Under the pieces are notes generated by a model. The model was not told where the DNA came from, did not search any database, and saw only the letters and a list, made by a program, of their open reading frames with translations. Below are positions 3,001-47,886 of a stretch of DNA of 64,000 nucleotides, piece by piece. The DNA lies in assembly GCA_050084515.1 (NCBI GenBank), contig CM114271.1, forward strand, positions 6,448,001 to 6,512,000, in the 5' to 3' direction. Source of the DNA: Blasia pusilla (Eukaryota). The translations under genes and the position numbers were made by a program. How positions within the stretch are numbered: position 1 is the first letter of the stretch; every line of letters starts with the position of its first letter.

Positions 3001-4977
3001 TAAAATTATTATTAAAAATTGAAAATTTAAATATAATTTAAAAAATTGTTTTTACACATGTTTTAAAATCTTTATTGATATGTGATAATTTAAAAAAATA
3101 TAAACTTATAAATATATGAAAAAAATTTGAATTTATACACACCATCATTAATCTCTCACTAACAAAAATTTTCCATGCATCAGTATCCTAAAAGGCAGAC
3201 GTGAATCCTTATGTGATTTCTTCATGAAACTAGGTTGATCTTCTTATGTGCCAAGGAAGGTTTGGCACATACATGTCGAATTGAAGCATGTTGAACAAAA
3301 GAGTGTTTCTACATCCATCCACAGATTATCTTTTCGAGACATGGCGGTGTCATGCTTACCACCACATCCAAGATATATAACTGATGTAATCCACATAATT
3401 CGAGTTTGGGTCTGAACTCAACTATCGGATAGCAGATCGAATCTCCTACGGCTAGTTTTAATTTCTTACGTACATGGCTAAATATATACCATGAGTGGAT
3501 AAGCACAAAAGGTAAATACCAGTCAGAGGTTGAACTAGCCGAGTGTTCACCCGACTGTCCTACTCACCTCCGTTATCCTACACTTAGTTTAGCCGAGATA
3601 TTAGCGAGTTTGATGGTGGGAGACAAAGCGGAGGCGGAAGACGATCGGCGCACTGAGGCCTTTTTCCATTTATTATTACTCCTGGGGTCGAACGGGCGGG
3701 CACAAGCGACGGATAGGGCAGACAGAGTAGCTGTTCCGAAAGGCCGTCGTCACGGAAATATGGGAAGCGCTGTCCGTCGGATGTTCCATCGCTCGGTCCA
3801 GAGTAGTGGGTAGTAGTAGGTGCGGGTAAGCGGAGTTCACATGTAGTAATTCGGTGTGGGATGGAAGAGACTCGAGATATGAGAGAGTGACAGCTCGAGC
3901 GGACGCGATGAGGGAGAATTCAGGAGAGGAGAGGAGAGGGTCGAACATCTCTCGAGTCAAACCCACACCACTTGCAGCGCCGAGTTTGTCGGGGGCTGCG
4001 GTTCAGCACAGCTCTCTCTTTTTAACGGCTTCTTAAGTTCTTGTACTCTCGCACATTCCCGACTTCACACTTCACAGGCAGTTGGTTGGAAAGCGGACGA
4101 AGAGGAGCCCCGTTGAGATGATGAAGTCTGGAGGGCCCGTGAATTATTGCGAGCGTGAGCAGTAGCGAGAGGAGGGTACAGTGCGGCTGCTGAACGTCGG
4201 TACTAACCGCCCGCGAGACAGGAGGAGAAGGAAACGGACCTTCACACCACGGGGACGATAGATCGGTTGTGCTTCGCTTTCGGGCCGCAGCTGCGACACA
4301 ACAAGCGAGGTGAGTCTCTTCTCGCCGTCCATGCTTCTGTGGATGGCGCGGATCGTGCCAATATTTCCAAGTCTTTATTTTTTAGAGTTCGCGCAGTCTC
4401 CTCACATTGAATGTTTTGTGCGGTGCGGTGTCTGGCTGCCTTTGCATTTCTGCAAAATCTGTCTACGGTGGGAACGAATTCCGTCGGTTCATGGGAAGGG
4501 CTCGCGGGTCGTTTCAGAAATGGGAAGCTTCGAAGACAGTAGTAGGATGTCATTGATCTGTGCTATGTACAGCGGGTCAGTGGACGTTCTGGTCTAGAGC
4601 ATCCTCGACGTCGAAGCTCCCGTTCTGAATCGGTGGGGGTTCTGGATCTCGACTTGACCGTCTGTCTGTACATGGAATTCTTGTGATGGTGATACTCGTC
4701 GTTCACTAGGGCTCTGCAGCCCACCCAATCTAGCGCTCCTCTCTCCACACGAAGGGGGAACGCCCATTCTGTCAGGGCATCAGGGTGGTGAGGGGGTGTG
4801 CTTGCAAGGTCAAGAGACCGCTGTAACGCTTCTCATTGAGGCTCCTCTTTTGAGCTTTTTGTATGCGGACTCCTGAAGTGCCGTGCTGACTACGAACATT
4901 GTGGCTCTGCAGCTGTGGAGCAGTGAGAATTCGAGTCGAACTTCGTCAAATTGTTTCGGCTTGAAACTTGAGCCAAG

Positions 4978-6962
4978 ATGGCCGGAGGTGGCATAGTCGT
5001 CGGGCATACCGGAAGGGAATATGAGGGCCGTGTCACACTGTTCGTGGCACTGGCCTGCGTCGTTGCAGCCAGTGGTGGTCTCATTTTCGGTTACGATATC
5101 GGAATTTCAGGTGCGTTTTGTCCCTCCTCGTTTGTCCTCGGCATTTCGGTTTCGCGCTCAGTGTGAATTTGGACTGTGCGCTTGAACCATGCCGGTCGAG
5201 TCGCTCGCATGCCATAGCTCCTACGGTCGTCCGCGTCGAGTTCGGTCGAGCTTCCAGGGTCAGGAGATTTGTTTGCGAAGACTGAACATGGGGCGACTAC
5301 TGTGGGTGGACAGGTGGGGTTACATCCATGGACAGTTTCCTCGGAAAATTCTTCCCGTCAATTCTCAAAAGGCGGACCAAAGGCAGAAACGCCTACTGCC
5401 TATACGATAACCAGGGTCTGCAGATTTTCACATCCTCTCTGTACCTTGCGGGTTTGATCGCCTCCTTCGTCGCCTCTTGGACAACCAGCAGGTGGGGTAG
5501 ACGTCCAACTATGCTGATTGGAGGCGTGTCCTTCTTAGTGGGATCCGTGCTTAACGCGGCAGCGCAAAATTTGACAATGCTCATTCTTGGGCGTATCATG
5601 CTCGGTGTCGGTGTCGGTTTTGCCAATCAGGCCGTGCCACTCTATCTGTCCGAAATGGCTCCCGCTAAGCTCAGGGGAGCTTTGAACATCATGTTTCAGA
5701 TGGCCACGACGCTCGGTATCTTGGCAGCCAATCTAATCAACTACGGTACCGGGAAGGTGAACTGGGGCTGGCGGCTGTCCCTCGGATTGGCTGCAGTGCC
5801 GGCATCCATCTTGACCTTGGGTGGTCTATTCCTGCCCGAGACTCCCAACAGTTTGATCGAGCGCAACCGTAACGACGAAGGGAAGCAGATGTTGCAGAAG
5901 ATCCGTGGCACACCGAATGTGGCGGCAGAATACGATGACATTGTGGTCGCCAGCAATGCCGCGTCTCAGATCCGACACCCGCTTCGCAATCTCCTGAGGA
6001 GGAAGTATCGCCCGCAGCTGACGGTGGCCATCTTGATTCCGTTCTTCCAGCAGGTGACCGGTATCAATGCCATCATGTTCTACGCTCCAGTGATATTCAA
6101 GACCATTGGTTTCGGCAACGACGCAGCTTTGTACTCTGCCGTCATCACGGGAGCAGTCAACGTCGTGGCCACTTTTGTCTCCATCGGTGTCGTTGACAGA
6201 TGGGGTCGAAAAATCCTGTTCTTCGAGGGTGGGATTCAAATGTTATTCTCTCAGGTAACAATCTAATGCCTCGTTACAATCTGTCCTTCGACGACATTTA
6301 CTTATTCACAGCGGTTGCCCCCGTCTTCCCTAGAGCCGAGTTCTTCCCACTCAGTCCCGTCAGTCGCGCACTTCCGCGAAGTCTCGTAGTGCTTCTACTT
6401 ACAAGACTAGTCGTATGAATAAGTTGCTGCCGCTCGTTCCTGTTGTAGCTCCTGAAGGTTGTGGTGCCGTGGGGAATTGCAGATCGCCATCGCGGTGGTG
6501 TTGAAATACAAGCTGCCCTTGGAAGTGGGATCGACCCTTCCCAAATCATGGGCCGCGGTAGTGGTGGTCCTGATCTGCATTTACGTCGCGGCGTTCGCCT
6601 GGTCATGGGGCCCTCTAGGGTGGTTGGTGCCTAGCGAAGTCTTCCCTCTCGAGATCCGGTCCGCAGCGCAGTCCGTCACCGTATCCGTCAACTTCCTCTT
6701 CACCTTTGTGATCGGTCAGGCGTTCCTCACTATGCTGTGTCACTTCAAATGGGGCATCTTCCTGTTTTTCGCAGGCTGGGTTCTGGTCATGACGGTGTAC
6801 ATCTACTTCTTCCTACCCGAGACCAAGAACACGCCCATTGAGGACATGGGTGATGTCTGGAAGCGTCATTGGTTCTGGAAGAAGTATTGCGAAGAAGAGA
6901 ATTACTACAATAACTCACTGTCGGCGGATGCAGAGAAGAACCGCGAGAACCTCAAATTGTAG
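4978..6962 (+). CDS. STP: Sugar transport protein (STP/MST family hexose:H+ symporter, MFS); exons 4978-5110, 5314-6254, 6483-6962
   Basis: The exons join in frame across GT-AG introns ([14 protein letters not shown] and MLFSQ|IAIAVV). Typical STP motifs: [88 protein letters not shown]. The specific paralogue cannot be assigned. Confidence 0.95.
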
Positions 6963-10082: not shown

Positions 10083-10720
10083 TGTCGTGCGGATACACAT
10101 CGCTACACAACATACATCGCTATCATCGAACACACACATAAACACACACCATCCCTTACTAACTCACGGCATCCAAACAACAAGAAGAGGAGTATCAAAA
10201 TATTTCCAATAAAATGAAGTAGATCTCGCATCAATGTCTCACACCAAGCTCTCCATGGTGTGCACTCTCTCTCATGTCAAACCAAACCCACTCTCCTAAT
10301 GAAAGGCTTGGCTTACACACACAAGGCAAGGAGGACCATAGCTCCGCCGCCTCATGCCGAGAGGTTCAACAAAGAGAGAATCAGTTCTCAAGCTCTCTCT
10401 CTTGGAGGTATATCCCCTTCCCTCTCCCAATCTCTCTTCTTAGTTACCTATGCTCGCAGGTCACCTCCTTGGCTCTTGGCCTGCTGTAGCAGGTCAAGGG
10501 CCACTTACCAAAGTGGAAAGTCAACTATACTCCGAATGGCAACTTACCCAAAATAGTATGTTCATCTATATGGCTCCAAATGAGCCGAAACGAAGGGGAA
10601 ACGTGCTCTCTTGGGTTACCCGCGACCTCAACAGGTTATCCTCGACCTCTTGAGGCTGCCCTCCAGAATCTCCGAAGGCGCTCTCCTAGATCTCGCCGAT
10701 CTATCCTAAAAGATGTGATA
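10083..10720 (-). repeat. Terminal repeat unit A-B (LTR-like) at the 3' end of copy A
   Basis: On the minus strand it starts TATCACA (family consensus TGTCACG) and ends CACGACA. 10215-10720 is a direct repeat of 19976-20468, and 10083-10210 is a direct repeat of 10723-10850. Confidence 0.8.
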
Positions 10721-11030
10721 ATTGTCATGCGCATGCACATCGCTACACAACATACATCGCTGTCACCGTACACACACATAAATACGCACAATCCCATGCT
10801 AGCTCATGGCATCAAAATAATAAGACGAGGAATACCAAAATATCTCCAATCCTCCCTCTGGCTGGTGGTTAGGTCCCTCTAACTCCACATAGCCATCTAT
10901 CCCTACCTACCATGACATACATCTCTTGGACGCCAAGAGCAAAAAGACCGAGTGCTCATGTGGCCCCATCGTTAGTTGCCTTCTTATCATCCATGTCACT
11001 AACACAAGTCTGAATCTAGAATTACCTACT

Positions 11031-12400
11031 CTATGTACATCTAGGACACATCCATCGTCCTTGAGGAACCCTAGTGAGAGGTGGCGTCAGACATGCCATA
11101 TGCCACCCTCTCGAACATCCATCATAGACTAGCGTAGTGACTGCACCACGGGCTGAACCACATAACATATATTGCAAGCCTGTAGGATCTACAAATAAGC
11201 TCGGATCAACTGTACCGTCAATTTTAGGAAGGTGACATGATGCACAATTACGCACTTGATCCTTCCAAACCATACCATTATGTCCCTCCAATAAGAGAAT
11301 ACCAGATGGCAAAACCTCACACACTCTCAAGATGGTGCGCCCTGCAGTCACATCCAACATCATGGATGTTGTCTGCTGCAAGTAGACATAGTCTCCGTGA
11401 TAAAACCTACAGATAGTAGATCGATAGCCACCTCCCCAAATAGTTGCATACCTCAACGTATCCCGATGCTACGCAATTGCCAAGTTCTCAAACGCCATGG
11501 GCATCACTCTCCGAAATAACTCAACTCTCTAAGAACATGCTCGCATCCATACATCAGGGTCATCAAGGATCAACACCTCACCAACATCTCGGCAAATGGC
11601 CGCAAGTAAATCTGGCTCTCGGCCATAAAGTAGCAAGTACAATGAGAAAGCTGCTAAGGATGCTTGCATGTTGAATCTGTATCCCATCGCCAACCACGGC
11701 AATTGGAGGTCCCAATCTCCTAGGTGACCTCTCTGCAAGCCATACTTGCGTAATCCTCTCTTCACCGTCTGCACAACCCTCTCTGCTAGTCCATCCGCCT
11801 CAGGATGATCTTGCAAAGTGGTGCGGTGGTCGATTAGCGCCTGATGATACAAAGCCTGAAACTCCCCGTGAAACTCTGTACCGTGGTCTATCAACACCTC
11901 AGCTGGTGCACCGTAATGACTCAGAACTCGATTTAGGAAGGCATACGTTACTCCCTCACTCGCTTTGTTAGGCAATGCAACCAACTCTATCCACTTCGAG
12001 AAGTGCTCGACCATCACCAACACATAACGACTATGGCGCTCTATCAAAGGTAAAGGTCCTATAAAATCCAAACTCCATCTATGACCTAAACCCATGATCA
12101 AAAGTGGATGCAATTGTGGAGTCGGAGCATGGAACAATGTCTGGACCCGATCACAAACCATGGACCTGTCAAAAAACTACTGAACGTCAGTCTGCATGCC
12201 TTGCCACCAATATTGTATCTGGAGCAAGCTGTATGTCCGCTTCACTCCAAAATGACCCAACTCCTCCTGGGCATGATGCACCAAACGTGCTCTCTGCAAA
12301 GGATGAGGCACTACATGAATTCTACGATTCTCCCAAACTCGTAACACATGTGTCCCCTCCCACCGGAACCGTCTGGCTCGCTGTAGGATCGGATCATGCT
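11031..12400 (-). pseudogene. Gypsy integrase with C-terminal PHD finger (copy A)
   Basis: Integrase core in ORF 11529-12161. The ORF 11031-11456 C-terminus QYMLCGSARGAVTTLVYDGCSRGWHMACLTPPLTRVPQGRWMCPRC fits the PHD pattern C-x2-C...C-x2-C-x4-H-x2-C-L-x-PPL...W-x-C-x2-C, with two Cys decayed to Tyr. Confidence 0.85.
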
Positions 12401-13138
12401 CTCTAGCACCCCTTGTGCTCGTGACGCTGCCAGTATACATGTACTCCAAGACTACTCCATTGTTGTGAATGTCTCGGCCACTTGTCGTCTCCTCATCGGC
12501 CTCTAGATCTAAGGATTCTCCATCAGACCTTGCCATCGAAGTTTCAGCAATGTGGCTCTTCATAGCCAACAAGCCCAAATAGGCTGACGCGTGCCATCCT
12601 GGCACCAACTCCTCATCACTCGTACCATGACAACGAGATCCAGTCGCATCTTGCTGACTCGGGCATGGGTTACGGCTCAAACCATGTGCATCCTGGTTGA
12701 GCGTCGCACGTCTATGCACCACCTGGAAGTCATACTCCTGCAACAAAAGAGCCCACCTCGCAAGCTTCCCTGCATGTAAGCTTGTCGGACTCCATCAACC
12801 ATTTAAGTGATTGATGATCAGTAATGATGATAAAGGGATTGCAGAATAGATAACACCTGAAATGTGTGACAACCCACACCGTAGCCAAGCACTCACCCTC
12901 ATACGAGCTATACTTCGCCTCTAGAACGTTGTTTGAGCGACTAGCATAAGCCACCACGAACTCTCTACCATCATCGTCATGCTAGATAAGCACAGCTCCA
13001 AGCCCAACATGCTCCAATCGGTATGCAATTGGAAAGGGTGCCCCTTGATCGGTCTCCTCAATATAGGCGCGGATGTCAATCTGTCCTTGAGTAGTTGAAA
13101 TGCTCTCTCTTGCTCATCCCCCTAGTGCCACTCTTGAT

Positions 13139-13495
13139 CAAGGTTGCATGTGGACAAATTTCGTGTCCATGGATATATCCATGTCCGTGGACTTATGTCC
13201 GTCTTATGGAAGGACTTGTCCGTATGGGCCCCACCTTTCCCTTCTCTCATTTCCCTTACTTTCCTTTGTGTTCCATACTCCTCTATTTTTTCCTCCCTCC
13301 ACCTCCACTCCCTCCTCCCTCATTGCTCCTCTCACCCTTGCCTTGCCTTCCATCATGGACTAAAAGTGTGGATCCCACCTCTTGTAACCCATGTCCATGG
13401 ACATGTCCAGACTTGTTTGTCCATGTCCATCCTAAACGGACAAGTTCTTCCATGTCCGTTCTAAGGAAGAACTTGTCTGTTTTTGTGCAACGATG
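13139..13495. mobile_element. hAT-like MITE inserted in the RT/RNase H linker of copy A
   Basis: 8-bp TSD ctcttgat/ctcctgat (13131-38 and 13496-503). Imperfect TIRs CAAGGTTGCA / TGCAACGATG. Many subterminal TGTCC/GGAC motifs. The pol frame (KVDQE|WH) resumes when it is removed. Confidence 0.7.
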
Positions 13496-14859
13496 CTCCT
13501 GATCCACCTTGGTCAGCAAGGTTAGCGGATTTGCAATCGTACTGAAACCCTTGACATACCGTCGATAGAAGTTTGCCAATCCCATGAATGCACGATCTCG
13601 ACTGACATATGTAGGGCGTAGAATGCATGAAATAGCCTCTACTTTTTTCTACTGTATATCAAGGCCACTTGGATATATCGTATGACCCAAGTACTCAATC
13701 TTGTCGTAGAAGAACTTGCACTTGCTTGGATGTAGCTTCAGCCCATGTAATTGCAATCATCAAAATACCTCCTCTAGATGTTGCTAATGCTCCTCAACCA
13801 ATGACCTAAGATTTAATCAATATAACTTAAGACTAAGATGTAATCAATATAACACCTAAAAAAACCTAGACCTTCCAAGATCCTATCCATGATCCTTTGA
13901 AACTCAGCCGGGCCATTCTTTAACCCAAATGGTAAGAACCGCCTCTGGTACAAACAAAACTTCCCTTGAGGATCAATGCCCCAAAATACCGTCTAATGCC
14001 TGTCTTCCAATCTGATAGGCAATTGATGGTATCGGTCTCGAAGATTTAGCAAATTGAAGACCTTTGCATATCCAATAGTATCAAAGATCTCCTCAAGGGT
14101 GGGCATGGCATACCTATTGGACTTGGTATGTCGATTGATAGGTCGGTAATCTCCACACATCTAGCTATCCATCATGTTGCCATGCATATCCTTCTTGGTG
14201 GGCATGATAGTGGCAGATGCATACTCTCTATGCAACATCTCCACTAGTCCTACTCCAACCAAGTCCTCGCTCGTACTTTGAATCAGAGCCCTCTCCATGT
14301 CACTATAACTGTAGGGTTGTCGGAAGATCGACATGTCACTCACCAACTCAATGCGGATCCCTGGATCCTTAAGCGTACCCAAATCATGTATGCTAAATGC
14401 AAAACAGCTCCTATAACTCCTTAGGAACTATATTTGGTGTCGCTCTCCTCTTGTCAACTTAGGCCCCATATCTAGCTCCTAAGTCTCCATCGTGACTATG
14501 GTAGGACTCTCTTGCGAGGGTGTTAATGGTTGCTATAGTGCAACCCCGTCTCGGACAATAGAACTCGGTTGCTCCCCTGCAGCCAACTGCAAACTTTGAT
14601 CTCCACGTGCAGTGCCTAGAACCACGCTCAATGTTGTGGTTATCATCTCTTCGCATACCTACAAAAAATCCCAAGAAGTCCAAGGGTGTCTCTCCCGATC
14701 ACCTCTCGTGTGTCGATCTCCTCGGGTCTTGCCCCCAGCCACTGCCTCAACCGTCTCGGTAGGCATGGGGCTCACCAACGCAACAACTGGGATCTGTCGC
14801 ATCCTCAAACGACGCTGCTCAGCCACTCCTAAGCTGAAAATCCATGTCAAGCAGTTCAA

Positions 14860-15740
14860 GTCCATTGCTTGACCCAAGACATGACGTCGTGATGCCTTTG
14901 AGAGTGACTGTATTTCCATCACTCCTATGGGGAATCCCATCGCTTGCTCTTGCTCATCGGCGTTGGGCTCCACCAACCGATGTACCTAGTCATCCCAAAC
15001 CAAGCCAGGTCCGGCCTCCTTGAATGCATAGGAAGCGGAAAAACTCACCAATGTGGGAAAGGTTGCTCATGGCATGTCAATCATCGTGCCTCATTGCGTG
15101 TGATCGACCACCTGGATCTAGAATATAATTCACCAACAAATCGGAGGGGCGCTCCACTCTTGCATAAGCCCTCCACAAAACCTCATGTGGCACCTAGTTG
15201 GTCCACTAAAGATACGGGCGTTGTGCACGTGAACCTACACTCGCCGCATCCAACAACATTTCTTGGCCGATCCATGCCCACACCTGATGTGTATTCGTCA
15301 CTACGCGGGGCCCCGAATCGCCCAAAATCAACACATTCTCCATAATGTATTCTGGAGAACGAGACTAATGCATCATATCCCAAAATAACATGGATTGAGA
15401 GTCAGCTAACACGCTATCTCGTCCGACACTTGATTGGCCATGACACGGCCAACCAGCAATGACCAAGTCTATGGTCCCTACCCTCTCCAAGTCCTGCGCC
15501 CCTAACAATGAAATGTTCCTCGGTAGGGAACTCTGGTAACTCTAGATAGTGGAAGCAGACAACATGTCGGGAAATCGAAGGCGTAACTACGCCACTTGAT
15601 GAAGTGAAGCTTTCCTTGCAACATCATCAATCTCAATGTACGTGTACTACTGCACTCGCACTCTTGCCTGCAAAATAGTAGCTAAGCCAGTGCTGATCCT
15701 TCCAAAGAGATCCAACATACGAATACCCTCCTCTAGGATG
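14860..15740 (-). pseudogene. DNMT3-like C5-cytosine DNA methyltransferase domain inside pol (copy A)
   Basis: Motif I IRMLDLFGRIS; motif IV IDLVIAGWPCHG (~15440-15470); motif VI YIMENV (~15335); motifs IX/X EQEQAMGFP...RRHVLGQAMDL (14976-14860). Frameshifted. Confidence 0.85.
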
Positions 15741-18700
15741 CACCGCACAATTGGGGTGGTGTCCAAAGAGGTCATAGTAGCACCCCTAGCTACCTCGGGT
15801 TCCCCTGACCCATCACGCTCTGGCACAAACACCTCACTCCACACCGTCTGCACATGCTCATCAGATAAACGTCGGAGCTCCTCACTCAAGCCCCAGAGCA
15901 TCACCTCTCCTCCATTGAATGATGCGGCTACCATAATACTCCTCTCCCTAGAAGTGTGAGGCATGGGGGTGTCCTTTGCATGGACATACCCCTCAATCAA
16001 ATCAGAAGGCCATGTGATAGCGATGCTAAAGTTGCCATCTCTCCTGGTCGTCGCTCGATCACTCCGCATGTGAATCAAACGAGTAATGAACAAATTCATC
16101 CATCACCGGACCGCCATCATGATTTGTAGGACAATGACTCCTCCTAGTAATCCAGGTAAAACCCCATCGGGTACAACACTCCTCCACCAACCAAGACGTC
16201 TCAGGACTCTGCATCGGTCACTACCGTCTTGGCTCGCACCATAGACTCATCTCTAGGATGTCCTGGGAAAATCCTCACCATAACCTCCTGTCGGGTGATA
16301 TACTGTGTGGTACTCGCTCCATCCAAGGATATCTCTATCCGGAATGGACAACGCTCCACATCGGCTCTCGTCAAGCCCAATCCTCTGAACGCCGCTTTCC
16401 CCAACATCAGGGGTTGCACTCCCAAATCCAATAGGACACGCTGCGGACTAAAAACTCTTCCTCCTAGACTCACCAACTGGAAGACCTCTTCCCACTTATC
16501 CAACAACACAACACCAGGAGAAGTGATGGCATGCTCTCTCGCGGGTCTAGCGGGCATCTCCGCCATCCTAGCAACCACAGCCTACCATGAATTTGACGTG
16601 CACGGCCCGAGCATAAGCTCCAAGGGTAGGTCCATCACCTCCTCTGCAATCATCCCTAAGTGTGACACAAGAATACCAACTCCACGCTCACATAGCATAG
16701 CGGAAAGCCAAAAAATCTTGGCGGGCGTACCTCCCAATGTCATAACATCGGAAACAAAAAATTAAAGGAGCGTGGTATACATCAGTGGTCGTCCCCAACA
16801 ACGTGCTCGAGACATGCTACTCCTGAGCATCAGCAATAAGAGTTTTCACACTCGCTTCTCCCATTGCCCTCCGTGCCTGCATACCAACAACATCACCAAC
16901 TCTTCGGCAACTCTGATCAGGACCCATCGATGGGGTCCTCATGCATCGATGGGTCCTGATCAGAGTTCCTCATCACCTTCGACAATGTGAAGGAATGAGG
17001 AAGCCAGGTCTATTTCCTGGCTTCCCCTTGCTATGGATCCAACTCTATGGCTGCTCCACGCGTAACAACTACGGCAGGCTCCATCTAGGCAACCCCGCAC
17101 ATCCAACCGAGAATCCTCCATATCTCTGGCTGCTCCATAAGACGTCGATGCCCCGGATCCGGCATCGGGTAACCTCAATACCATAGCGGCAATCAGCTGA
17201 TGTATCTGAGAAGCCATCCCGGTCTCATGCCCGATGTCTCCCTCGACATGTCTAGGTGGTGGAACTCTACCTCCTCCACGGGAAACTCTAGCAACCCCTT
17301 GAGCAACTCCAGCTACTCGTCCCCCAACGGGACCACCTAGTGCACGACCTTTAGACCCACCCAGACCGGCTACTCGCTCTAGTGCCCTCTTTTGTCCTTG
17401 GTCTAGATGTAACTTAGGGTGCAAGGTGAAACACCTAGCGCGTCTGTGACCCTACCTCTAACAATAGTCACACTCATAACCTCTTGGTGTAGCACCATCT
17501 CCTCCTCCATGCTGAGGCACTTGTCCATGACCCTAACGAGTACAATCGCGTTGGTGATGGGCTTCACCATATGCCCAGCAAATAATCATAGGCGGCTGAT
17601 GTTGAGCGGGTAACTACTCTCGCCCATAACCCATGGTGGCTACGCTCTCCTCCGCCATATTGCGCTCAATCTTCTTGATGGTCCTAAATTAAAAATATCT
17701 CTCAACGTAGGTGAGGTGTTCATAAGAAACACCCCCTCTCACACCCGTGTCCGCAGGGATGGATCCAACATCGCGTACCATGACTAGATAGCTTGGGACT
17801 CTATCACCCCTTGAGTGATATTAATCAACCGGCGCAAGCGAGTGTAGGCCTCATGCAAACTCTCATCCGAGCGCCTTTGGAAGTCGTGGATGCTCCATAA
17901 CTTCTCCGTCCGTACCCCATGGTAGCTTGACCGCAACTCAGCAAAGAACTCAACCACAGGGTTGAACGTGGGACGAAGATGACTGGAAGGTGCATCTGCT
18001 CCAGTGCAAGTCACCCCTCCTAAAACATCACTGGTGGAAGAGGAAGAAGCCTCTCCTGGTTCCTCCTCCTAATCTGGGAACATCTCCGTCCATGACACAT
18101 AGTGTGGGTCATAGTAGAGTCTCCATGCCTCAATCTCATGGGCATATATCTAGGAGAACTCATGGTAATCTTCCATGGGCGCCCCCTCTAAATGTTGGAA
18201 CATACCGTTCCATGTTGTGAACGGGTTGAACTCCCTAGAGTTTCTAGCCCACTGTGAGTCACACCAACTCCTAAACTGTGTAATGAATTCGTGTAGCTCT
18301 ATAGTGCGTATAGCACCCGAAAACCTATGCGGTCCTCTACCCTGTTCGTCCATCTCGTACGCCCAACGAAGAACTCAATGTGTGTGGTGATGCACTAACA
18401 CACTCTTCTACACTCTCTCCCTCGTCTAAAGACGACACAAAAGGAGATCGCGGTGATCTCTCACGTGGCGACCCTCAAAACCTCGCGCCACTCCGGATAA
18501 ACCCTCTAGAGCTACTCTCAGGTCTACCACCTCGCCTCTCAAAGTCCTGAATGAACGCCCTGATGACCCTCATGCCCCTCTCACATGATAATTCTCTACC
18601 TTGGGAGTAATCGCTCAATCACTCAAACTAACCATACGGCACTCAATCTACACTCTCTCACTCAGACGTGTGTTATGCGGAAACAAGTGGCATGGTGCGG

Positions 18701-19608
18701 CAAATCAACTACTGTCTTATTATCTCATCGACATAACATATCATCAACTCTGGATATCCCACACATGTCTATGTCCCCTAAATCCATACATCAATAGTGC
18801 TCTCAGCATCCGCACGAAATCCAATATCCCAAATAACAATATAACCCAATACCCGGAAATCCCTAACACGGGCATGACAAAAGACCAGAATGGATAACTT
18901 GACAATAATGTCGATGTTGCTCCTCAAAAACTGCAAATCTTGACCCCAACTCAATTATGAAGACAAACTCCTCCAAAGAGCATGTCGTACTCCCCTGGTA
19001 TTGATGATGCTCAAATCTCCTCGATGTATGATACAGGTCTAGCGGTGCAGTGCGGCACTAGCGGCACGAAATGGCTACAAACAAAATGGCATGGCACTCG
19101 AGAATAGGGTTCGACATTCAGCGGCATACCCTCCTCAATCAACAAAACACAATCTGCTCCATAGTGATGATGGCGTTCCACGATCAAGACGATGCGATGC
19201 GGTCACGAGCGGCACGGCGCGTTGGGGCTACGGGCATCACGGCATGGTACTCGATAATCGACGAGTGGCTACCAATCACAACATAGCAAAGCAAAAAAGA
19301 AATGGCGAACCCATGACTCCAAAAAGATCACCGTCAAATCAACAACAGTGAAGAACGTCGTCGACGGCGGCCAACGGATGGAGCAAGGACAGCCCGCATG
19401 GACAGTGAAAGTCAATAGTAATTACGATATCTTTCATGTGGGTAAAAATGGTTCTATTTTGAACTTATTCAAAAAGTCGATTTTGTCTTCCCACTCTACT
19501 AACTTCTTAGACGAAGGGTCAACTAACTTAAATTATTCACATTTGGCGTATATTGCACTAAGCCCCATAAATATTGGGTCAACACCCACTAAATAAAGTT
19601 TCCACTCA

Positions 19609-20468
19609 AGTCGTGCAACCCAATATCTCTTTCTCCTACGCAAATTTTGGCAGCGCCTCCGCGCTAATTTCTCCCAAAAAAAATCTAAAACCTGTAAAAA
19701 CATCATTCAACAAGCTACAAGGCACTCTTGAGAGCACCAGCGTGGGGTAACCTGCCCCCATACTCAATTTCTATGCAAATTTTGGCAGCGCTTCCGCGTG
19801 CCACTCTTCCGTACGAAAAAACAGCAAAGGAAACAGCAAAAGTGAGTGGCTCTTACTCTAGTGAGCACTCCCATGAACCGCTAAACAGAGAATACGGTGC
19901 CCAAGCTGCAATAACAATGAGTGACCAGCAAACTCCCCCATTGAAACTCTCTCACTCACTCATTCTCTCTTTGTAAATGAAGTAGATCTCACATCAATAT
20001 CTCACACCAAGCTCTCCATGGTGTGGACTTTCTCTCATGTCAAACCAAACCCAGTCTCCTAATGAAAGGCTTGGGTAACACACATAAGGCCTAGAGGACC
20101 ATAGCTCTTCTGCCTTTTGCCAAGAAGTTCAACAAAGAGAGATTGAGCTCTCAAGCTCTCTCTCTTGGAGGTATACCCCCTTCCCTCTCCCAAGGTCTCT
20201 CCTCGGTAACCTATGCTCACATGTCATCTTCTTGGCTCTTGACCTCCTGTAGCGGGTCAAAGACCACTTCTCAAAGTGTAAATTCAACTATACTCCAAAT
20301 AGAAACTTACCAAAAATAGTAAGTTTCTCTATATGGATCCAAATGAGCCGAAACGAAGGGGAAACCTACTCTCTCAGGTTACCCGTGGCCTCAACAGGTC
20401 ATCCTCGACCTCTTGAGGCTTCCCTCTAGTATCTCCAAAGACGCTCTACTAGATCTCGGCAATTTATC
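19609..20468 (-). repeat. 5' terminal block (A plus extension) of copy A
   Basis: Direct repeat of 10215-10720. Reverse complement of 50389-50974 at the start of copy B; both blocks end at the same (C/T)ACGAC(A/T). Confidence 0.75.
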
Positions 20469-26854: not shown

Positions 26855-28091
26855 TGTCACGTCCGATATGATAGATCGGCGAGATCTAATAGAGCGCCTT
26901 CAAGGATAGTGGAGGACAACCTCATGAGGTTGAGGATGACTTGTCGAGGCCACGGATAACTTGAGAGAGGAAGTTTCCCCTTCGTTTTGGCTCATTTGGA
27001 ACCATATAGAGAAACTTAATATTTGTTTGAATAAGTCACCATTTTGAGTAGAGTCAACTTTCCACTTTGAGAAAGGGTCATTGATCCCCTACAACATGTC
27101 AAGATCCAAGGAGATCATCTACAAGCATAGGTTACCGTGGAGAGAGTTTGGGAGTAGGAAGGGGATATACCTAAGGAGAGAGAGCGTTGGAGCTCATTCT
27201 CTCTTTGTTGAACCTCTTGGCATGAGATGGCACAACTATGGTCCTTCTTGCCTTGTAAGCAACCCAAGCCACTCATTAGCAAAGTGAGTTTGGTTTGACA
27301 CGAGAGAGAGATATAGTGTGTGCACCTTGTGAGAGATCTTTGTCGTGCGCATACACATCGCTATACAACCCACATCGGTGGTACATCTACACACCACACG
27401 ACATCGATCTTCCCTAGCATACTGGTAGATCCACACATAAAAAAATACACTCACCCATATACACCGAGACCCCACAACAAAATCAGAATAGTAAAAACGG
27501 CTCACCCGACCTAAAACTCCACTCATGAATCTACATCGGCATATCGAACCACATCCACCCTCCGCTATGAGAGAATCGAGATGCTAGCATCCTAGCTCCT
27601 ACACACCCACACACATACATGTAAGAGATGTGTTCCTAAGGCTCAACATGAGAAAGATGGCTTGGGGAAGCCATCTTCCTCACTGTTATACCCTTAGGAA
27701 GAGCCAAAACGCTCTTCCCCCAAAAATAGCCCTACCAACTGTAATCTATGTGCACACGTTACTGGTTGACCGTTGACTCGGTCAACATGTCACTTGACGG
27801 ACTAAAACCAAAATAGGGAAATCGCCATGAACGATGTTCTCGACACAACAGACGTGTCGCCAACCTCATTCGACATCTCGGAACGAAGTTACACCCGAAC
27901 AACCCGTTGACTCTCTATGTCGTCGACGCTATAAAACTCTACCTACGTCAAAATAAGATTGAGAGAGAACCTTAATTTAATTAGAGATATTTTGATACGC
28001 AATTGTCTTTGTGTGTGGATACTGTGAGTTAGCATGGAAATTTGTGTGTTTGTATGTATAGTTGGTGACAACGATGTGTATGCACATGACA
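26855..28091 (+). mobile_element. Solo A-B unit of the DNMT-Gypsy family with a nested fragment (27341-~27950)
   Basis: Starts TGTCACG, ends CATGACA, exact 4-bp TSD TAAG (26851-54 and 28092-95). The nested part resembles 34490-34555 plus 35587-35940. Confidence 0.75.
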
Positions 28092-29225: not shown

Positions 29226-29549
29226 TGTTTCCGAAGTGCTATGCGTCGAGGAAGGAGGTTGTTCAAGAATCCAGATGTCACCCTCTCTTAATAGTGTAGA
29301 CTATCTATTTTTTTATTCAACTAAGAGTGAAAGAGTTATTAAGCTCTTCTTGATTTATATCCTCTCTCCCAATTTCTTTCCTCCATGACTTATGTATATT
29401 GGCGCAAAGGTCCTGCAAAGTCTAGACTCCACTGATAACATAATCCCATAATCAGAAAAGAATGCAACTTCGGAGTGGGAGCATTAAAGAATGCTCGCAC
29501 TCAATCACATACCATACACCGGTTACAAACTGCTAAACCTCAATATGCA

Positions 29550-32500
29550 TGCCGTGCCACCAATACTAAACATGAATTGAGCTGTAAGTAGTCTTTACCC
29601 CAAAATGCCCCAACTCCTCGTGGGCATGTCGCACTATACGTGCACGCTAGGAAGGATGAGGCACCACTCATACCCTACCATCCCCTCACACCCGTAAAAT
29701 ATGTGTCCCCCCCCCTTAACCTCCTAGCTCTCTATAGGATCCGATCTCACTCCCTAGCACGCTATGATGCTAGTACATAGGAATTCCACAAGCTCCACGT
29801 CGTCATGGATATCATAACTACCTGTTGCCTCTTCACTAATATTCCGATCTGGAGATTCATCATGTGACCCTACCACTCGAATCATCATTTGATGCTCACA
29901 TGATATCGTCAGCCAAAAAAAAAAGGCACAAGCGTGCCAATCGAGCACCATCTTTTCGTTACTCTTTCCATGCCATAAAACTTGTGTATTGTCTCTCTCC
30001 CTCGGTTATGGGTTGTGACTCAACCCATCTTCATCTTAGTTCAGTCAACTTAGCCTATGAACCACCAAAAACTCATACTCATATAGTAATAAAGCCCACA
30101 TGGCAAGCTTCCTAGTAAGCTTTTCAGACTCCATCAACCACCTCAACGATTGATGATCAATGATAAGTGTGAAAGGATTTCCAAATAGATAACACCTAAA
30201 ATGTGCCATGGCCCACACTACACCCCAGCAGTCTCCATCGTAGGAGTTGTACTTTGCCTCTGCGATGTTGTTCGATTGGCTCACATAAGCAACAACAAAC
30301 CTCCTTTCCTCTTTATCTCTCTAAGCAAGTGAGCACTACTCCTTGATCCAACATGCTGCAATCCGTATGTAATTGGAATGGAAAACCCCTAATTAATCTC
30401 TGTAAAATGAATGAGAACGTCAACCTATCCTTGAGCTCCTAAAATGCTCGCTCTTCATCATCTCCCCAATTCCAAACCTAATCAAGTCATGTTAGCAAGG
30501 TCAAAGACTTTGCGATCGCTTTAAAACCCTTAGCATATACTTGATAGAAGTTCATTAGTCCTAGATTGTATAAATACTCGAACTCAACTCACGTCTGTAG
30601 GGCATGGAATTTCCACAATAGCCTCTGTCTTTGTATGTTGAACACCTAACCCACTTGGGTATATATATGGTGTGTCCCAAGTACTTGATATGCTCTTAAA
30701 AGATCCTGCACTTGCCTAGATGTAACTCCAGTCCATGTAGTTGCAATTGCCAAAACACTCCTCTAGCTGTTGCTCATGCTTCTCAACCGAGGAACTAAAG
30801 ATAAGAAGATAATTTCTGTAACGCCGTACAATATGCAACTTGCAAGAATCCTATCCATCACTCTCGGGAACTCCGTAGGGGCGTTCTTCAACCCAAATGG
30901 TAAGAACTCCCACTAAAACAAATAATCTCTCCCAAACTGATCTATCCCCCTAAACTTTGTCTTCTTGCGTCCTCCATCTTGATAGGAAGTTGATGATAGC
31001 CAACACAAAGATCTTTGCATGTCCTACTCATCAAAGATCTTCTCAAGAGTAGGCCTGACGTATCAATTTGACCTCATCTGTCTGTTGATAGGACGATAAT
31101 CTCCACACATCCGCCTATCCACTGAGTTTCCATATATCCTTCTTTTTCGGCATGGTTGTGGCAAATGCATACTCCCCATGCAATAACTCCACCAATCTTG
31201 CCTTCCACAAGTCTTGACTCCTACTCTAAATCAATGCTTGCTCCACGTCGGAATACCTGTAGGATCGACGAAAGATCGGTGTATTAGTAGCCAAATATAT
31301 CTGTATCGCGGGACCCTTCAACATATCCAAATCTCTCATACTAAAGGCAAAACAACCCATATGCCCTCTCAAGGATCTATGTGTATGCCGTCTCTCTCCT
31401 CTTGTCAACTCAAGACCTATCACAGGCTTCCAAGTCTCCATCACTCGAAGAATATGCAATCTTTGGCTGTGATTACTATGTAGCAACCCTAGCCACCTCA
31501 AGTACAACAACCCCACTATTACCTCCCACATCATGCTCCACACCAAAAAAATGAACATGTGCCACTTTGGCTGCCTCCGCACTCTCTACTTGAACGATAT
31601 CCCAGGAAGTCCATGGTTCCCTACCTCTCCCCGCCTTGCCCCCAATCAATACCTCTACAGACCCTATAGGCAATGCGCTAACTCATGGACGTGACAACAT
31701 GGATGACAATCGCATATTCCTCTACTCAACTATACCTAGATTGACTATCCATATGACACAATTGAGGTCCTCAAGTCCATTGCCTGCCCCAACACTTATC
31801 TCCGTCACGCCTTTATCATAACTGGCACTGCCGAAATACCCATAGCAAACCCCATGGCACGCTCGCACTCATCAAGAGTAGGCTCCTCTAATGTTTGGGT
31901 CTCCTCATGCCATTTTATGCATGGCCTTGCCTTACAAAAGGCATGGGATGCGAGGAAGCCTACCAATGTAGGTAAGGTTGCCCTCAACTCCCCCACCCTA
32001 TTGGCTACCGCCAATGGTGGTTCGTCATCCCCTATCACCACTTGAGACCGATGCCATGGACCACAGATAGCATCCACTATCAAGAGTGGTGCTCTCTAAA
32101 CTCCATCATAAGCTAGCTCGCCTCAATACCTCCGATGGTAGAAGGTTCGTCCATCATAACCGTGACCTCACTTGATGAACACTCGTCATCAATTGTGCGT
32201 GCGGAAGCCTCCGCGGTACGACTATCTCCTCTAACAACACGTCGAACCTTTCTTCAGTAGATGCAAACTACCGGTCAACATTAGCATGTGTGTCTCCTTC
32301 ACTAACAATCCATTGCAAACTCTCGGTGCGGATCACACATCTCATCGCCACTTGGAAAAATGCTAACAAATCAAAACTCTGTCTCAAAAACCATGGGTCG
32401 AAAAAATCCTCGCCAATCCCAACACTTTGGTACCTACCACATCCATCACCCGACCACTTCTTATGCCATCAAAATTGGATAGCAATGCAAGTCCATGTGA
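29550..32500 (-). mobile_element. Diverged, internally deleted DNMT-Gypsy relic (copy C)
   Basis: DNMT C-terminus LEEPTLDECERAMGFA; linker GREPWTSWDI; RT start FAFSMRDLDMLKG...RSYRYSDVEQALI; RNase H SNNIAEAKYNSYDGDC...HFRCYLFGNPFTL; integrase N-terminus near 29600. Collinear with copies A and B. Confidence 0.8.
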
Positions 32501-37199: not shown

Positions 37200-37870
37200 C
37201 CTTGATATCCTTTGATACGTACCACACTCATTTTGTGATAGTGTCTAGAGGAAGGTATCAGAGACTTTAAGAGTGCTAGATCTCTTTGGAGGGATGAGCA
37301 AGACGTTAGTTGCAATTTTGTGGGATGGCATACTATTACAATAATGTCTATATGTTGAGAGAGATGTGTGCAATCATACTACGAGTCTGATTGCATTGTG
37401 TGGCGAAGTTGATTCAATACGTAGAGTTGTTATAGGTATTGTAGTATTAGAAATACGTGGGTAGGGTGATATATTAGCCTCCGATATTTCATTGTTGGGG
37501 ATATAGGATGTGGACATGGTTAGCACCACTCATTTCATGATGTTAGGATGGCCACATCAAGGTTTATTCATCGGTTGGTGGAGGGCTCGGATCCAAGGTT
37601 CAACATGTTTTGGGAGATGGTGTGGGTATTACAACACTCCCAAGAGAGTTAAACATGTTCTCTGACGTTCATTTCCGAGAGCGTGCCATTGTTAAGATAC
37701 ACAAGTGCATAGGTGATGACGAATGTGCATGAGGTGAGTACTTGATTAGGACCATTCTTGTTCTTCGATGCAACAAATCATTCGTTGGATTGATTGCATG
37801 TTGTCCACGATTTTGGTGGATCAACCTTCTACCATCATAGGTAGTGAGTTAGGCTTGGGATGGCGCAATG
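37200..37870 (+). pseudogene. Highly decayed DNMT domain relic of the same Gypsy family (copy D)
   Basis: LEEGIR..VLDLFGGMSKTLVAIL, LYVERD, MLGWPHQG, RFNMFWEMV, ESVPLL, CPRFWWINL in the expected order, with stops and frameshifts. Confidence 0.7.
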
Positions 37871-38008
37871 CTAGTTAAGCTTATGTAAATAATTAAAATT
37901 TTATCTAATACTAATTTTAGTGAGGCCCTAACAATGAACAAACTTACTAAGCGAGCAAAAAACCTAAGGAGTTGCTCTCCATTTCTAATCATGTTGCCTC
38001 CTACCAAA

Positions 38009-47277: not shown

Positions 47278-47886
47278 TTACAACTCTGAATGCTTAGGCT
47301 CCGGTTTGCCGTCATTGAGAACAAATTTTACACCGTACTCCATACCCAAAGTGAGAATTCTTTGCATGTCAGCTGGGGTCAGTGTAGGAGGAGGACCAGG
47401 AGCAGAAGGGTCGGCTACAGGAATTCCTACATCCAAGAAAAACTTCTCGAACCCACTGGGAGCATAGGTGAGAACCATGGTAGCCATCTTACCAGACTTG
47501 TTCATGAATTGATGAGGAACTAATCTAGGTAGGTGCACAAAGGAGCCCTTCGTGGCATGGAACTTTTGATCTCCGACGATCCACTCGAGCTCTCCATCGA
47601 GCATGTACCACGTTTCTTCTTCCAAGGAATGGATGTGAGCTGGAACAGTCGTCCCTGGGGGTACACGATCTTCCCAGCAGGAGTAAGTTCCTCCCGTTTC
47701 GTTTCCCAAGACTTTGATGGTGACCAAAATCCCCACCACCCAAACACTCACTCCTTCGCCTGCAAGGTTTAAAGGATACTTGTCCACATTAGCACGGATA
47801 GGAGGGCAAGAATATCTGCAGTGCAACATGAAACAGACAGCCCTTTCCATACCAGTTCGTTCTAGAGCCGACTTCTCTGCAATCAA
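47278..47886 (-). CDS. Monocupin, quercetin 2,3-dioxygenase (QueD/YxaG)-like; 5' end uncertain (likely splice acceptor at ~47816)
   Basis: Cupin metal site PAHIHSLEEETWYMLDGEL (HxHx4E) and GSFVHLPRLVPHQF; flanking TGGTYS and PSGFEKFF motifs. Uninterrupted ORF. Confidence 0.8.
   Translation of the reverse strand: MIAEKSALERTGMERAVCFMLHCRYSCPPIRANVDKYPLNLAGEGVSVWVVGILVTIKVLGNETGGTYSCWEDRVPPGTTVPAHIHSLEEETWYMLDGELEWIVGDQKFHATKGSFVHLPRLVPHQFMNKSGKMATMVLTYAPSGFEKFFLDVGIPVADPSAPGPPPTLTPADMQRILTLGMEYGVKFVLNDGKPEPKHSEL

Follow-up and report, generated by a model that had tools for sequence, protein, structure and literature searches.

Can a single retrotransposon carry both a writer of DNA methylation and a reader of histone state, and if so, would the two act together? 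This question is raised by a locus in a 64-kb window of the Blasia pusilla genome ("the window" is the whole stretch of DNA that was analyzed). A sequence-only reading had described, at positions 10083 to 20468, a near-complete retroelement with a DNA methyltransferase (DNMT) domain and with a PHD finger on its integrase (IN), and had proposed that the two constitute a self-contained epigenetic module.

A decayed Ty3/Gypsy element with a DNMT domain and a PHD finger

Pfam, tblastn, and remnants of two gag zinc knuckles bear out the claimed domain order, gag(2xCCHC)-PR-DNMT-RT-RH-INT-PHD, with all coding remnants of the element on the minus strand. Direct long terminal repeats (LTRs) flank the coding region and the Pol order is PR-RT-RNaseH-IN, as in Ty3/Gypsy elements; the integrase of one relative (P0001) also aligns to the Ty3 polyprotein/integrase chain 7q5b (E = 2.5e-14). 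The 5′ LTR (repeat A, first copy; 19975 to 20468) and the 3′ LTR (repeat A, second copy; 10212 to 10705) are 494 bp long and 86.8% identical, i.e., 13% apart (65 of 494 sites; JC distance, 0.145). A shorter repeat, B (128 bp, 84% identity), is found just before the 3′ LTR (10723 to 10850) and again after it (10083 to 10210), and the repeat layout of the element, read on the minus strand, is A-coding-B-A-B. Read joints of approximately 9.7 kb ("go back" and "skip") were rejected as rearrangements; they are LTR-to-LTR equivalences around a diverged stretch.

Closest to the 5′ LTR lies the gag remnant (16950 to 18338), which contains the two decayed zinc knuckles and aligns in tblastn with residues 9 to 490 of the Marchantia protein P0040 at 36 to 47% identity, with 10 in-frame stops. 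The protease region (16072 to 16761) is assigned by position and homology only, through tblastn to residues 530 to 757 of P0040; Pfam gave no match on the open gag and PR fragments, and in the relative P0037 Asp_protease_2 scored 20 bits, below the cut-off of 24.3. A decayed domain resembling DNMT3-type C5 cytosine methyltransferases follows at 14665 to 15766 (tblastn, P0040 and P0043), with a Pfam DNA_methylase match at 15541 to 15368 (22.4 bits; cut-off, 22). Between it and the reverse transcriptase is an in-frame TAG (14533 to 14535) followed by CAA CCA. The reverse transcriptase remnant (13460 to 14469; tblastn, P0043 and P0011) includes an RVT_1 match on a 59-amino-acid fragment (13992 to 13816) with 27.1 bits, below the cut-off of 29.6. 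An extra segment of 365 bp (13131 to 13495) is absent from many family copies, as seen in read joints and in a second copy in the window; the joint 13130-13496, which lacks it, occurs in 469 DNA reads and 74 RNA reads. The RNase H remnant (12733 to 13142; RT_RNaseH, 71.9 bits; RT_RNaseH_2, 38.6 bits) is followed by the H2C2 zinc-binding domain and DDE core of the integrase (11532 to 12278; Integrase_H2C2, 39.1 bits; rve, 44.6 bits), by the integrase C-terminal domain (11172 to 11468), which aligns without a break to relatives at 57 to 71% identity for the closer group, and finally by the PHD finger at the polyprotein end (11037 to 11171).

The element is dead. It contains about 39 in-frame stops (25 + 14, counted in tblastn segments) and at least 8 frame changes, and the description "near-complete" thus holds for its domain content, not for its integrity. 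One gag knuckle remnant (17580 to 17542) has Tyr in place of the second Cys and the other (17472 to 17431) has two in-frame stops; the knuckles of intact relatives read CWTCGGDHQRRDC and CDHCGRAGHTRDRC. The DNMT domain of the window copy has FGR as motif I and PCH as motif IV. The integrase core and the PHD finger share one frame with three stops between them, and zinc ligands 1 and 3 of the finger are Tyr, leaving six of the eight ligands of the Cys4-His-Cys3 pattern.

The PHD finger belongs to the integrase

The finger that had been placed at 11034 to 11175 was matched by PF00628 at 11165 to 11037 (residues 102 to 144 of the ORF at 11468 to 11034) with 32.3 bits, above the cut-off of 24. It forms the last 45 residues of the integrase in the window element, after the C-terminal domain, which is indeed the position of the chromodomain in chromoviruses. 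Pfam found no chromodomain on this C-terminal ORF, where only PHD families matched at E ≤ 0.1, and no chromodomain family appeared among the Pfam results for the relatives.

The ligand losses described above are not general in the family. Most full-length aligned relatives keep all eight PHD ligands, with some showing losses of their own, and PF00628 scores of the relatives range from 31.8 to 45.1 bits. In family reads from the same organism, ligand 1 is Cys in 865 of 927 DNA reads and in 157 of 161 RNA reads (first-mate-on-plus reads). The finger is also in frame with the integrase, within a 1,047-amino-acid ORF in each of the loci L024 and L027. Loss of the Cys4-His-Cys3 ligands or of the shared frame in other copies had been named as an observation that would speak against the proposed module; the relatives retain both.

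The finger is likewise fused to the integrase in related proteins. PF00628 was found in 31 of 36 matches, 21 of which have rve and PHD in one protein, and the five without it end before or inside the finger. At E ≤ 1e-10 there were 591 cluster representatives; of the 150 with the best matches, 138 aligned continuously through the C-terminal domain and the finger.

DNMT and PHD co-occur across the family

Other family copies in the window carry the same methyltransferase. A second copy, about 80% identical (50391 to 57947, plus strand), contains a DNMT ORF at 55043 to 55819 (Pfam, 38.2 bits) and a junction TAG at 56323 to 56325; it has no PHD finger because it is cut off inside the integrase. 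An LTR followed by repeat B is also found at 60125 to 60814 (B at 60686 to 60814). A third, more distant copy (29405 to 32198, minus strand; 67% nucleotide identity) spans the C-terminal half of the DNMT, RT, RNase H, and the start of IN, and an isolated DNMT fragment from a further related element lies at 37273 to 38008 on the plus strand (tblastn, P0040/P0043; 25 to 49% identity, with stops). The four family fragments of the window sit in a repeat-rich stretch and are uninformative on target choice.

Beyond the window, integrase-PHD relatives were found in Marchantia, Calypogeia, Sphagnum, and a Coleochaete transcript, with the same domain order in named liverwort and moss proteins. Of 80 metagenome loci chosen solely by their IN-PHD, 17 extend into gag or PR, and all 17 have the DNMT between PR and RT. 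Four loci considered as DNMT-free relatives (L003, L010, L036, and L037) were rejected as such; gag and PR are missing from them as well, as is RT from three of them, and they are therefore truncated or interrupted copies. The reverse selection gave a similar picture. We counted PHD fingers in the 120 listed of 236 proteins found by their DNMT: 110 have DNMT and IN, 104 extend at least 260 amino acids past IN, and 101 of these 104 green-algal polyproteins show the PHD pattern. Green-algal members have the DNMT at a different place, between RNase H and IN, where it immediately precedes IN-PHD within a single ORF.

Purifying selection acts on both the DNMT and the PHD finger. Between the two intact copies, L024 and L027, pN and pS were 0.16 and 0.61 for the DNMT (Ka/Ks, 0.14) and 0.07 and 0.66 for the PHD finger, and dN/dS was 0.03 for the integrase C-terminal domain; these ratios are rough because dS is near saturation (1.2 to 1.6). 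The proposal that a DNMT and an integrase-fused PHD finger belong to one element is thus upheld by co-occurrence across the family and by selection on both. These observations also refute the view, to which we give practically no likelihood, that the window copy alone has acquired either domain through chance capture or through a chimeric assembly: three window copies and the proteins P0043, P0048, and P0037 have DNA_methylase between PR and RT, as do every informative metagenome locus and named liverwort and moss proteins.

The family is abundant in the sampled organism and is transcribed strand-specifically. Genomic reads matching the element at ≥85% make up 0.94% of the total, and matching RNA reads make up 0.043 to 0.046% in three RNA runs with a 10- to 100-fold strand bias, a strand-specific reading that presumes the usual library type. 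The RNA reads are 85 to 95% alike, with 0 to 1 reads at ≥99%, and so do not come from the window copy. They could stem from many defective copies.

The PHD finger resembles readers of unmodified H3K4

What might the finger recognize? In a PDB search with an IN-PHD relative, the best solved fingers among the top 60 of 94 matches were those of CHD4, PHF12, KDM5B and KDM5A (PHD1), PHF21A, ATXR5, DPF3, UHRF1, AIRE, and BAZ2A/B. Fingers of this kind read an H3 tail unmethylated at K4. By sequence likeness, the element's finger therefore appears to most resemble those that read unmodified H3K4. A structure model of the IN-PHD relative P0001, built from a 12-row alignment, was poor overall, with a mean pLDDT of 42 and a pTM of 0.24; only the finger (residues ~341 to 390) stood at 72 to 82.

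Many PHD fingers read H3K4me3, and some yeast elements prefer regions upstream of genes; a finger of this type would send insertions to active promoters. We consider this very unlikely here, as classical H3K4me3 readers are absent from the best 60 of 94 solved matches, and in the alignment of relatives the conserved Trp immediately precedes the zinc-binding His, whereas in cage-type readers it stands two residues before the His.

Instead, we infer that the integrase-borne finger would tether the integration complex to nucleosomes with H3 unmethylated at K4, and that such tethering would keep insertions from active promoters, with a steering role like that of the chromodomain in chromoviruses. 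A finger without any histone-reading role, which might engage a host factor as a zinc-stabilized module for protein interaction or nuclear import or might help intasome assembly, seems distinctly improbable to us. PHD fingers are a frequent accessory domain of unproven role in many unrelated algal transposons, as described in text from PMC8557442 and PMC9940879, which is compatible with such a role. However, the closest solved relatives of this finger all come from chromatin proteins and bind the H3 tail, and its position is that of the chromovirus chromodomain. Some algal relatives also have a Tudor-like stretch after the PHD finger, although in P0026 it scored 22.7 bits, below the Pfam cut-off of 27.2.

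A DNMT3-like domain ahead of a leaky-looking stop codon

The writer appears to be DNMT3-like. Among solved structures, DNMT3A/3B come closest (E about 1e-10), followed by DRM (4e-7) and then by bacterial enzymes. In relatives, the motifs occur in the order I, IV, VI, VIII, X with the catalytic motifs retained, and motif IV reads PCQ, where DNMT3 has PCN. Beside the retroelement domains, Pfam gave DNA_methylase alone in the relatives, with no ADD or PWWP.

A homologous in-frame TAG stands at the DNMT-RT junction in the window element, copy 2, L017, L024, and L027. It is followed by a CARYYA context in all of these except L017, where TAG CAA CCC agrees in five of six letters. UAG-CARYYA is a read-through motif defined in PMC4132726, and by this resemblance the UAG looks leaky. 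The conserved TAG splits gag-PR-DNMT from RT-RH-IN-PHD, with the DNMT approximately 1,100 residues from the PHD finger. Writer and reader should therefore be made in different amounts and would probably be different mature proteins; the DNMT, encoded before the stop, would be made in gag-like amounts. This separation weakens the analogy to DNMT3 with its ADD domain that the sequence-only reading had drawn, while its idea of an epigenetic module keeps the presence of a DNMT and an integrase-fused PHD finger in one element.

Overall, we think it probable that 10083 to 20468 is an old, inactivated Ty3/Gypsy copy from a green-lineage family whose intact members encode gag-PR-DNMT, a leaky-looking UAG, and RT-RNaseH-IN-PHD, with the PHD finger presumably tethering integration and the DNMT presumably methylating DNA. 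If so, the DNMT may act on the new cDNA or on the insertion site. The sole published activity test of a Gypsy-DNMT3 domain (from Klebsormidium nitens, in yeast) was inconclusive according to the text of PMC5890265.

A tighter coupling would make the PHD finger and the DNMT one module, in which the finger, carried by the integrase or by a read-through polyprotein that stays uncleaved, anchors the complex to H3K4-unmethylated chromatin. The DNMT would then methylate the new insertion together with the DNA around it, in the manner of DNMT3 with ADD, resulting in self-silencing or in camouflage as host heterochromatin or gene-body DNA. Strict co-occurrence in two domain orders, purifying selection on both domains, and the direct adjacency of DNMT and IN-PHD in the single green-algal ORF are consistent with this idea, and self-methylation of cDNA has been proposed in the discussion of PMC5890265. 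In the streptophyte form, however, the stop and some 1,100 residues intervene and a protease is encoded, and no ADD domain is among the best 60 of 94 PDB matches of an IN-PHD relative. We therefore find a single module doubtful and favor tethering and methylation by separately dosed proteins.

Relation to described elements and biological meaning

Elements that share parts of this anatomy have already been published: Gypsy-DNMT3 elements, PHD-bearing algal Gypsy elements, and EpiLTRs that combine a chromodomain with a methyltransferase. KnitGypsy-Dnmt3 of K. nitens, also a streptophyte, is a Gypsy LTR element with a non-rearranged Dnmt3-related domain inside Pol, the layout A-coding-B-A-B (Fig. 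4c legend), and a Ka/Ks below 0.2, compared with 0.14 here (PMC5890265). The word PHD is absent from the main text and legends of that paper, and the finger may be in its figures or supplements; its text stresses few copies in K. nitens, in contrast to the read share observed here. No K. nitens protein appeared by name among the relatives from our protein searches. We see the present family as the form that the published Gypsy-DNMT3 kind takes in streptophytes, a likeness drawn from description rather than from sequence.

Gypsy-7a_cRei of Chlamydomonas reinhardtii, also compared by description, has a Gypsy Gag-Pol with a PHD finger, but its legend gives GAG, PROT, RT, RH, PHD, and INT, without a DNMT; the authors propose a part in the avoidance of harmful insertions and find 2.6-fold more intergenic insertions than expected (PMC9940879). 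EpiLTRs (bioRxiv 10.64898/2026.05.21.726589) likewise are LTR retrotransposons with DNA methyltransferase domains and a histone reader in one element. As described in the text of that preprint, however, they occur in Cymbomonas and Euglena and pair a chromodomain as reader with a prokaryote-like adenine methyltransferase and a DNMT4-related cytosine methyltransferase as writers; the authors hold the DNMT acquisition distinct from that of Gypsy-DNMT3. Chromoviruses share a histone-reader-type domain at the integrase end after the C-terminal domain and presumed tethering to a chromatin state, but in the present family the reader is a PHD finger rather than a chromodomain and the mark likely differs. 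Animal DNMT3A/3B with ADD offers the most similar solved catalytic domain and a zinc finger of the unmodified-H3K4 type in the same genetic unit; the element differs in lacking ADD and PWWP, in its motif IV, and in bearing its finger on the integrase instead of the methyltransferase. Searches of openly available texts found no description of a PHD finger on the integrase of a DNMT-carrying Gypsy element; one may be in print in figures, supplements, subscription journals, or the thesis Craig 2021. The pairing of DNMT and PHD looks under-described.

A broader scenario, which we offer tentatively as a possibility short of probable, is that a single ancient Gypsy clade ranges from chlorophytes to liverworts and mosses, and that its DNMT3-type writer and the reader of unmodified H3K4 on its integrase predate the split of these lineages and have been retained together since, with some algal members adding the Tudor-like stretch. 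In streptophytes the writer would have left the RNaseH|IN junction for the PR|RT junction, where a leaky UAG follows it, and would be made in gag-like excess. In bryophytes such as Marchantia, a measurable part of de novo methylation or of insertion bias may be due to such a minimal "read K4me0, write 5mC" system.

Retrotransposons with chromatin tools show mobile DNA negotiating with host silencing. Members of this family also occur in the model plant Marchantia polymorpha, for which histone-mark maps have been published, and natural intact copies could therefore serve there to ask whether a retroelement selects its insertion sites by a histone mark and supplies its own methylation. Retroelements that dose an accessory enzyme by recoding would be rare, and the moved DNMT with the conserved, leaky-looking stop would be such a case.

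Domain order and decay of element 1

The sequence-only reading had assigned to the minus-strand Ty3/Gypsy copy at window 10083-20468 (element 1) the order gag-protease (PR)-DNMT3-like methyltransferase (DNMT)-reverse transcriptase (RT)-RNase H (RH)-integrase (IN)-PHD. Every coding remnant is on the minus strand, with no open frame longer than 215 codons, and we called domains on these open fragments with Pfam. Matches were obtained for PHD (PF00628, window 11165-11037; 32.3 bits, cut-off 24), rve (44.6 bits), Integrase_H2C2 (39.1 bits), RT_RNaseH (71.9 bits), RT_RNaseH_2 (38.6 bits), and DNA_methylase (22.4 bits, cut-off 22), and RVT_1 matched a 59-aa piece at 27.1 bits, below its cut-off. No Pfam match to gag or PR was found on the open fragments; both regions align by tblastn with the Marchantia protein P0040, and two gag zinc knuckles persist as remnants. 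Because of the Pfam matches, the P0040 alignment, and the knuckle remnants, the assigned order is right, and the PF00628 match places the finger where the reading had put it.

The 494-bp LTRs (repeat A; 19975-20468 and 10212-10705, minus strand) are 86.8% identical, differing at 65 of 494 sites (JC distance 0.145); on this LTR divergence, element 1 would be millions of years old. Repeat comparison also revealed a 128-bp repeat B on both sides of the 3' LTR, just before it at 10723-10850 and just after it at 10083-10210 (minus strand), resulting in an A-coding-B-A-B arrangement. The succession of A and B is repeated at 60125-60814, where a second family copy (copy 2) ends. The unusual A-coding-B-A-B layout of element 1 is also that of KnitGypsy-Dnmt3 of Klebsormidium nitens, as described by de Mendoza et al. 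2018 in the legend to their Fig. 4c (PMC5890265).

Element 1 is heavily decayed. About 39 in-frame stops interrupt its tblastn segments (25 in the alignment with P0040 and 14 in that with P0011, another related protein), and the reading frame shifts at least 8 times. DNMT motifs I and IV read FGR and PCH, and Tyr occupies PHD ligands 1 and 3; at ligand 1, Cys is encoded by almost all reads of the family. Between RT and RNase H, a 365-bp segment of low complexity (13131-13495) has no counterpart in copy 2 or, judged from DNA and RNA reads, in many family copies. Element 1 has A/T where family reads have G/C at 715 places and the reverse at 318 (run X12), as expected if decay proceeds by deamination. 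The two lost PHD ligands have each changed from Cys to Tyr, and together with the A/T bias these changes fit a silenced copy whose methylated cytosines were deaminated.

Other features in the window

Copy 2 (50391-57947, plus strand) is about 80% identical to element 1 and carries gag, PR, DNMT, RT, and RH before ending within IN. A third copy (29405-32198, minus strand; 67% identical) retains the C-terminal half of DNMT, RT, RH, and the start of IN, and a further DNMT fragment lies at 37273-38008. DNMT lies upstream of RT in every copy in the window, and element 1 alone reaches the PHD. The segment at 26867-27310, 79% identical to the family LTR, in opposite orientation and with no adjoining coding part, is probably a solo LTR. 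Another Gypsy lineage is represented at 61726-62980 (minus strand) by RT and RNase H that are 25 to 33% identical to those of the DNMT/PHD family and include an uninterrupted frame of 245 codons (RVT_1, 102 bits). A sugar-transporter exon at 5286-6266 (plus strand; Sugar_tr, 280.7 bits) and a cupin-domain frame at 47278-47889 (minus strand; Cupin_2, 56.6 bits) are likely pieces of host genes, and the retroelements cluster between and around them.

Abundance and transcription of the family

We counted reads on element 1 at a likeness of at least 85% in one genomic run and three RNA runs from one study. In the genomic run, 116,717 of 12,434,590 records (0.94%) fell on element 1, only 143 of them at 99% likeness or more; the family is very abundant and element 1 is one of many copies. 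The RNA runs yielded 4,710 of 10,132,408, 5,181 of 11,974,664, and 4,947 of 11,053,536 records. First mates were 10- to 100-fold more frequent on the plus strand, which, given the usual library type, is sense-strand element RNA, and this asymmetry rules out DNA carry-over as the source. None of the three RNA runs had more than one read at 99% likeness or above, so expression of element 1 itself was not seen.

The integrase-PHD fusion and its association with DNMT

A word-indexed search with a 145-aa ORF of element 1 returned 36 proteins, 31 with PF00628 and 21 with rve and PHD in one protein; by alignment, the 5 without PF00628 terminate before or within the finger. Named matches came from Marchantia polymorpha, Calypogeia fissa, and Sphagnum fallax, and one is filed under a Coleochaete scutata transcriptome. 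Most aligned relatives retain the Cys4-His-Cys3 ligands expected of a PHD finger, and some have ligand losses of their own. Proteins of the closer group end 1 to 15 residues past the finger, with one exception (P0004, which diverges inside the finger and continues for 198 further residues), and those of the more distant group extend 60 to 380 residues beyond it. When 1.84 billion representatives were searched in full with HMMER, 591 reached E<=1e-10, and among the best 150, a single match covers the C-terminal domain and the finger in 138.

A metagenome scan with an IN-PHD alignment recovered 80 loci. In all 17 that also contain gag or PR, DNMT lies between PR and RT; 2 loci have the order RT-RH-DNMT-IN-PHD. 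Four loci with long upstream sequence and no DNMT were set aside as broken copies, all lacking gag and PR and three lacking RT.

We used the 259-aa DNMT ORF of copy 2 to search for DNMT relatives and obtained 21 proteins (13 from Marchantia polymorpha, 2 from Calypogeia fissa, 2 from Sphagnum, and 4 unnamed). In the related proteins P0043 and P0048, Pfam finds DNMT-RT-RH; in P0037 it places a weak protease match ahead of DNMT. Motifs I (FGG), IV (PCQ), VI (ENV), VIII (RxR), and X of the relatives stand in canonical order, and the best solved structures are DNMT3A/3B (E about 1e-10), followed by DRM (4e-7) and bacterial enzymes. More distant polyproteins have the second order, RT-RH-DNMT-IN-PHD, and their DNMT is 38% identical to the liverwort DNMT over about 370 residues (E 1e-62), making the two clearly homologous by sequence. 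Because the two forms are far closer to each other than either is to solved DNMT3A, the simplest reading would be a single capture of DNMT followed by a move inside pol, the direction of which is unrooted.

A search with the second-order DNMT region gave 236 proteins, 120 of them listed; among the matches listed, named hosts are chlorophytes (Chromochloris, Monoraphidium, Haematococcus, and Hariotina). DNMT and IN are both present in 110 of the 120, always in that order. At least 260 residues follow IN in 104, and 101 of these 104 carry the PHD pattern. Because the query was DNMT alone, co-occurrence with the PHD is tested independently here. The proposed pairing of DNMT and PHD across related elements thus held in 17 of 17 loci reaching gag or PR and in 101 of 104 algal proteins. 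Four green-algal relatives (P0026, P0023, P0058, and P0178) each consist of one ORF, up to 3281 residues long, with about 320 extra residues beyond the PHD. A Tudor-like match below cut-off (22.7 versus 27.2 bits) is present in one green-algal relative, and in one a G-patch (30.7 bits) lies between DNMT and IN.

Selection was assessed by Nei-Gojobori counts between two intact, mutually diverged metagenome loci, L024 and L027. The ratios, which are rough because dS is near saturation, were 0.14 for DNMT (pN 0.16, pS 0.61), 0.03 for the IN C-terminal domain (pN 0.04, pS 0.61), 0.04 for the PHD (pN 0.07, pS 0.66), and 0.06 for RT-RH-IN-PHD as a whole. The excess of silent change is plain despite the near-saturated dS.

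An in-frame TAG between DNMT and RT

L027 consists of a 1369-codon frame (gag-PR-DNMT), a TAG, and a 1047-codon frame (RT-RH-IN-PHD), all in the same frame, and L024 is built alike; in intact copies the PHD is therefore in frame with the integrase, as the fusion claim demands. The TAG is followed by CAG TTA in L027 (TAG at 5083-5085), CAA TCA in L024 (TAG at 4661-4663), CAA CCA in element 1 (TAG at 14535-14533, minus strand) and copy 2 (TAG at 56323-56325, plus strand), and CAA CCC in the metagenome locus L017. Four of the five, all except L017, fit CARYYA, the context described for read-through in tobacco mosaic virus and in many plant viruses (PMC4132726). In Marchantia, Calypogeia, and metagenomes, protein models stop shortly past DNMT or start shortly ahead of RT, as expected from an in-frame TAG. 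The conserved TAG and CARYYA-type hexamer suggest programmed read-through at a point past protease and DNMT, not at the end of gag. If the TAG is leaky, DNMT would be produced alongside gag and PR and more abundantly than RT and IN-PHD.

Putative PHD target and relation to described elements

Among the best 60 of 94 solved matches to P0001, a related protein, classical H3K4me3 readers do not appear. By sequence, its finger is nearest to those of CHD4, PHF12, KDM5B and KDM5A (PHD1), PHF21A, ATXR5, DPF3, DPF2, UHRF1, AIRE, BAZ2A/B, KAT6A/B, and ORC1b (E values of 1e-15 to 1e-7). Because fingers of these types hold the K4-unmethylated H3 tail, we infer that the PHD may tether the element to K4-unmethylated chromatin. 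Chromoviruses follow the same tether logic through a chromodomain, although the mark differs.

In the portions of the literature consulted, Dnmt3 inside Gypsy Pol of K. nitens is reported to be under purifying selection, with an inconclusive yeast activity test, and "PHD" is absent from the text and legends of that paper, figures and supplements aside (PMC5890265). DNMT3s within streptophyte retrotransposons are restated elsewhere (PMC12344493). PHD fingers are described in the Gag-Pol of Gypsy-7a_cRei and as a common accessory domain among Chlamydomonas transposons (PMC9940879, PMC8557442), and can occur in Ginger1 DNA transposons with a Gypsy-like integrase (PMC2836005). In EpiLTRs, a chromodomain occurs together with adenine and cytosine methyltransferases (2026 preprint 10.64898/2026.05.21.726589). 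In open literature text (figures, supplements, and non-open literature aside), we found no description of an integrase-fused PHD in DNMT-carrying Gypsy elements, nor of such elements in liverworts or mosses, the two DNMT positions, or the in-frame stop.

Element 1 is a dead member of a real family, abundant and under selection, that is best filed as a variant within the known Gypsy-DNMT3 kind. The observation made by the sequence-only reading stands; its interpretation as a self-contained epigenetic module does so in part, its functional side being a prediction from sequence. These functional claims would be most readily tackled in Marchantia.
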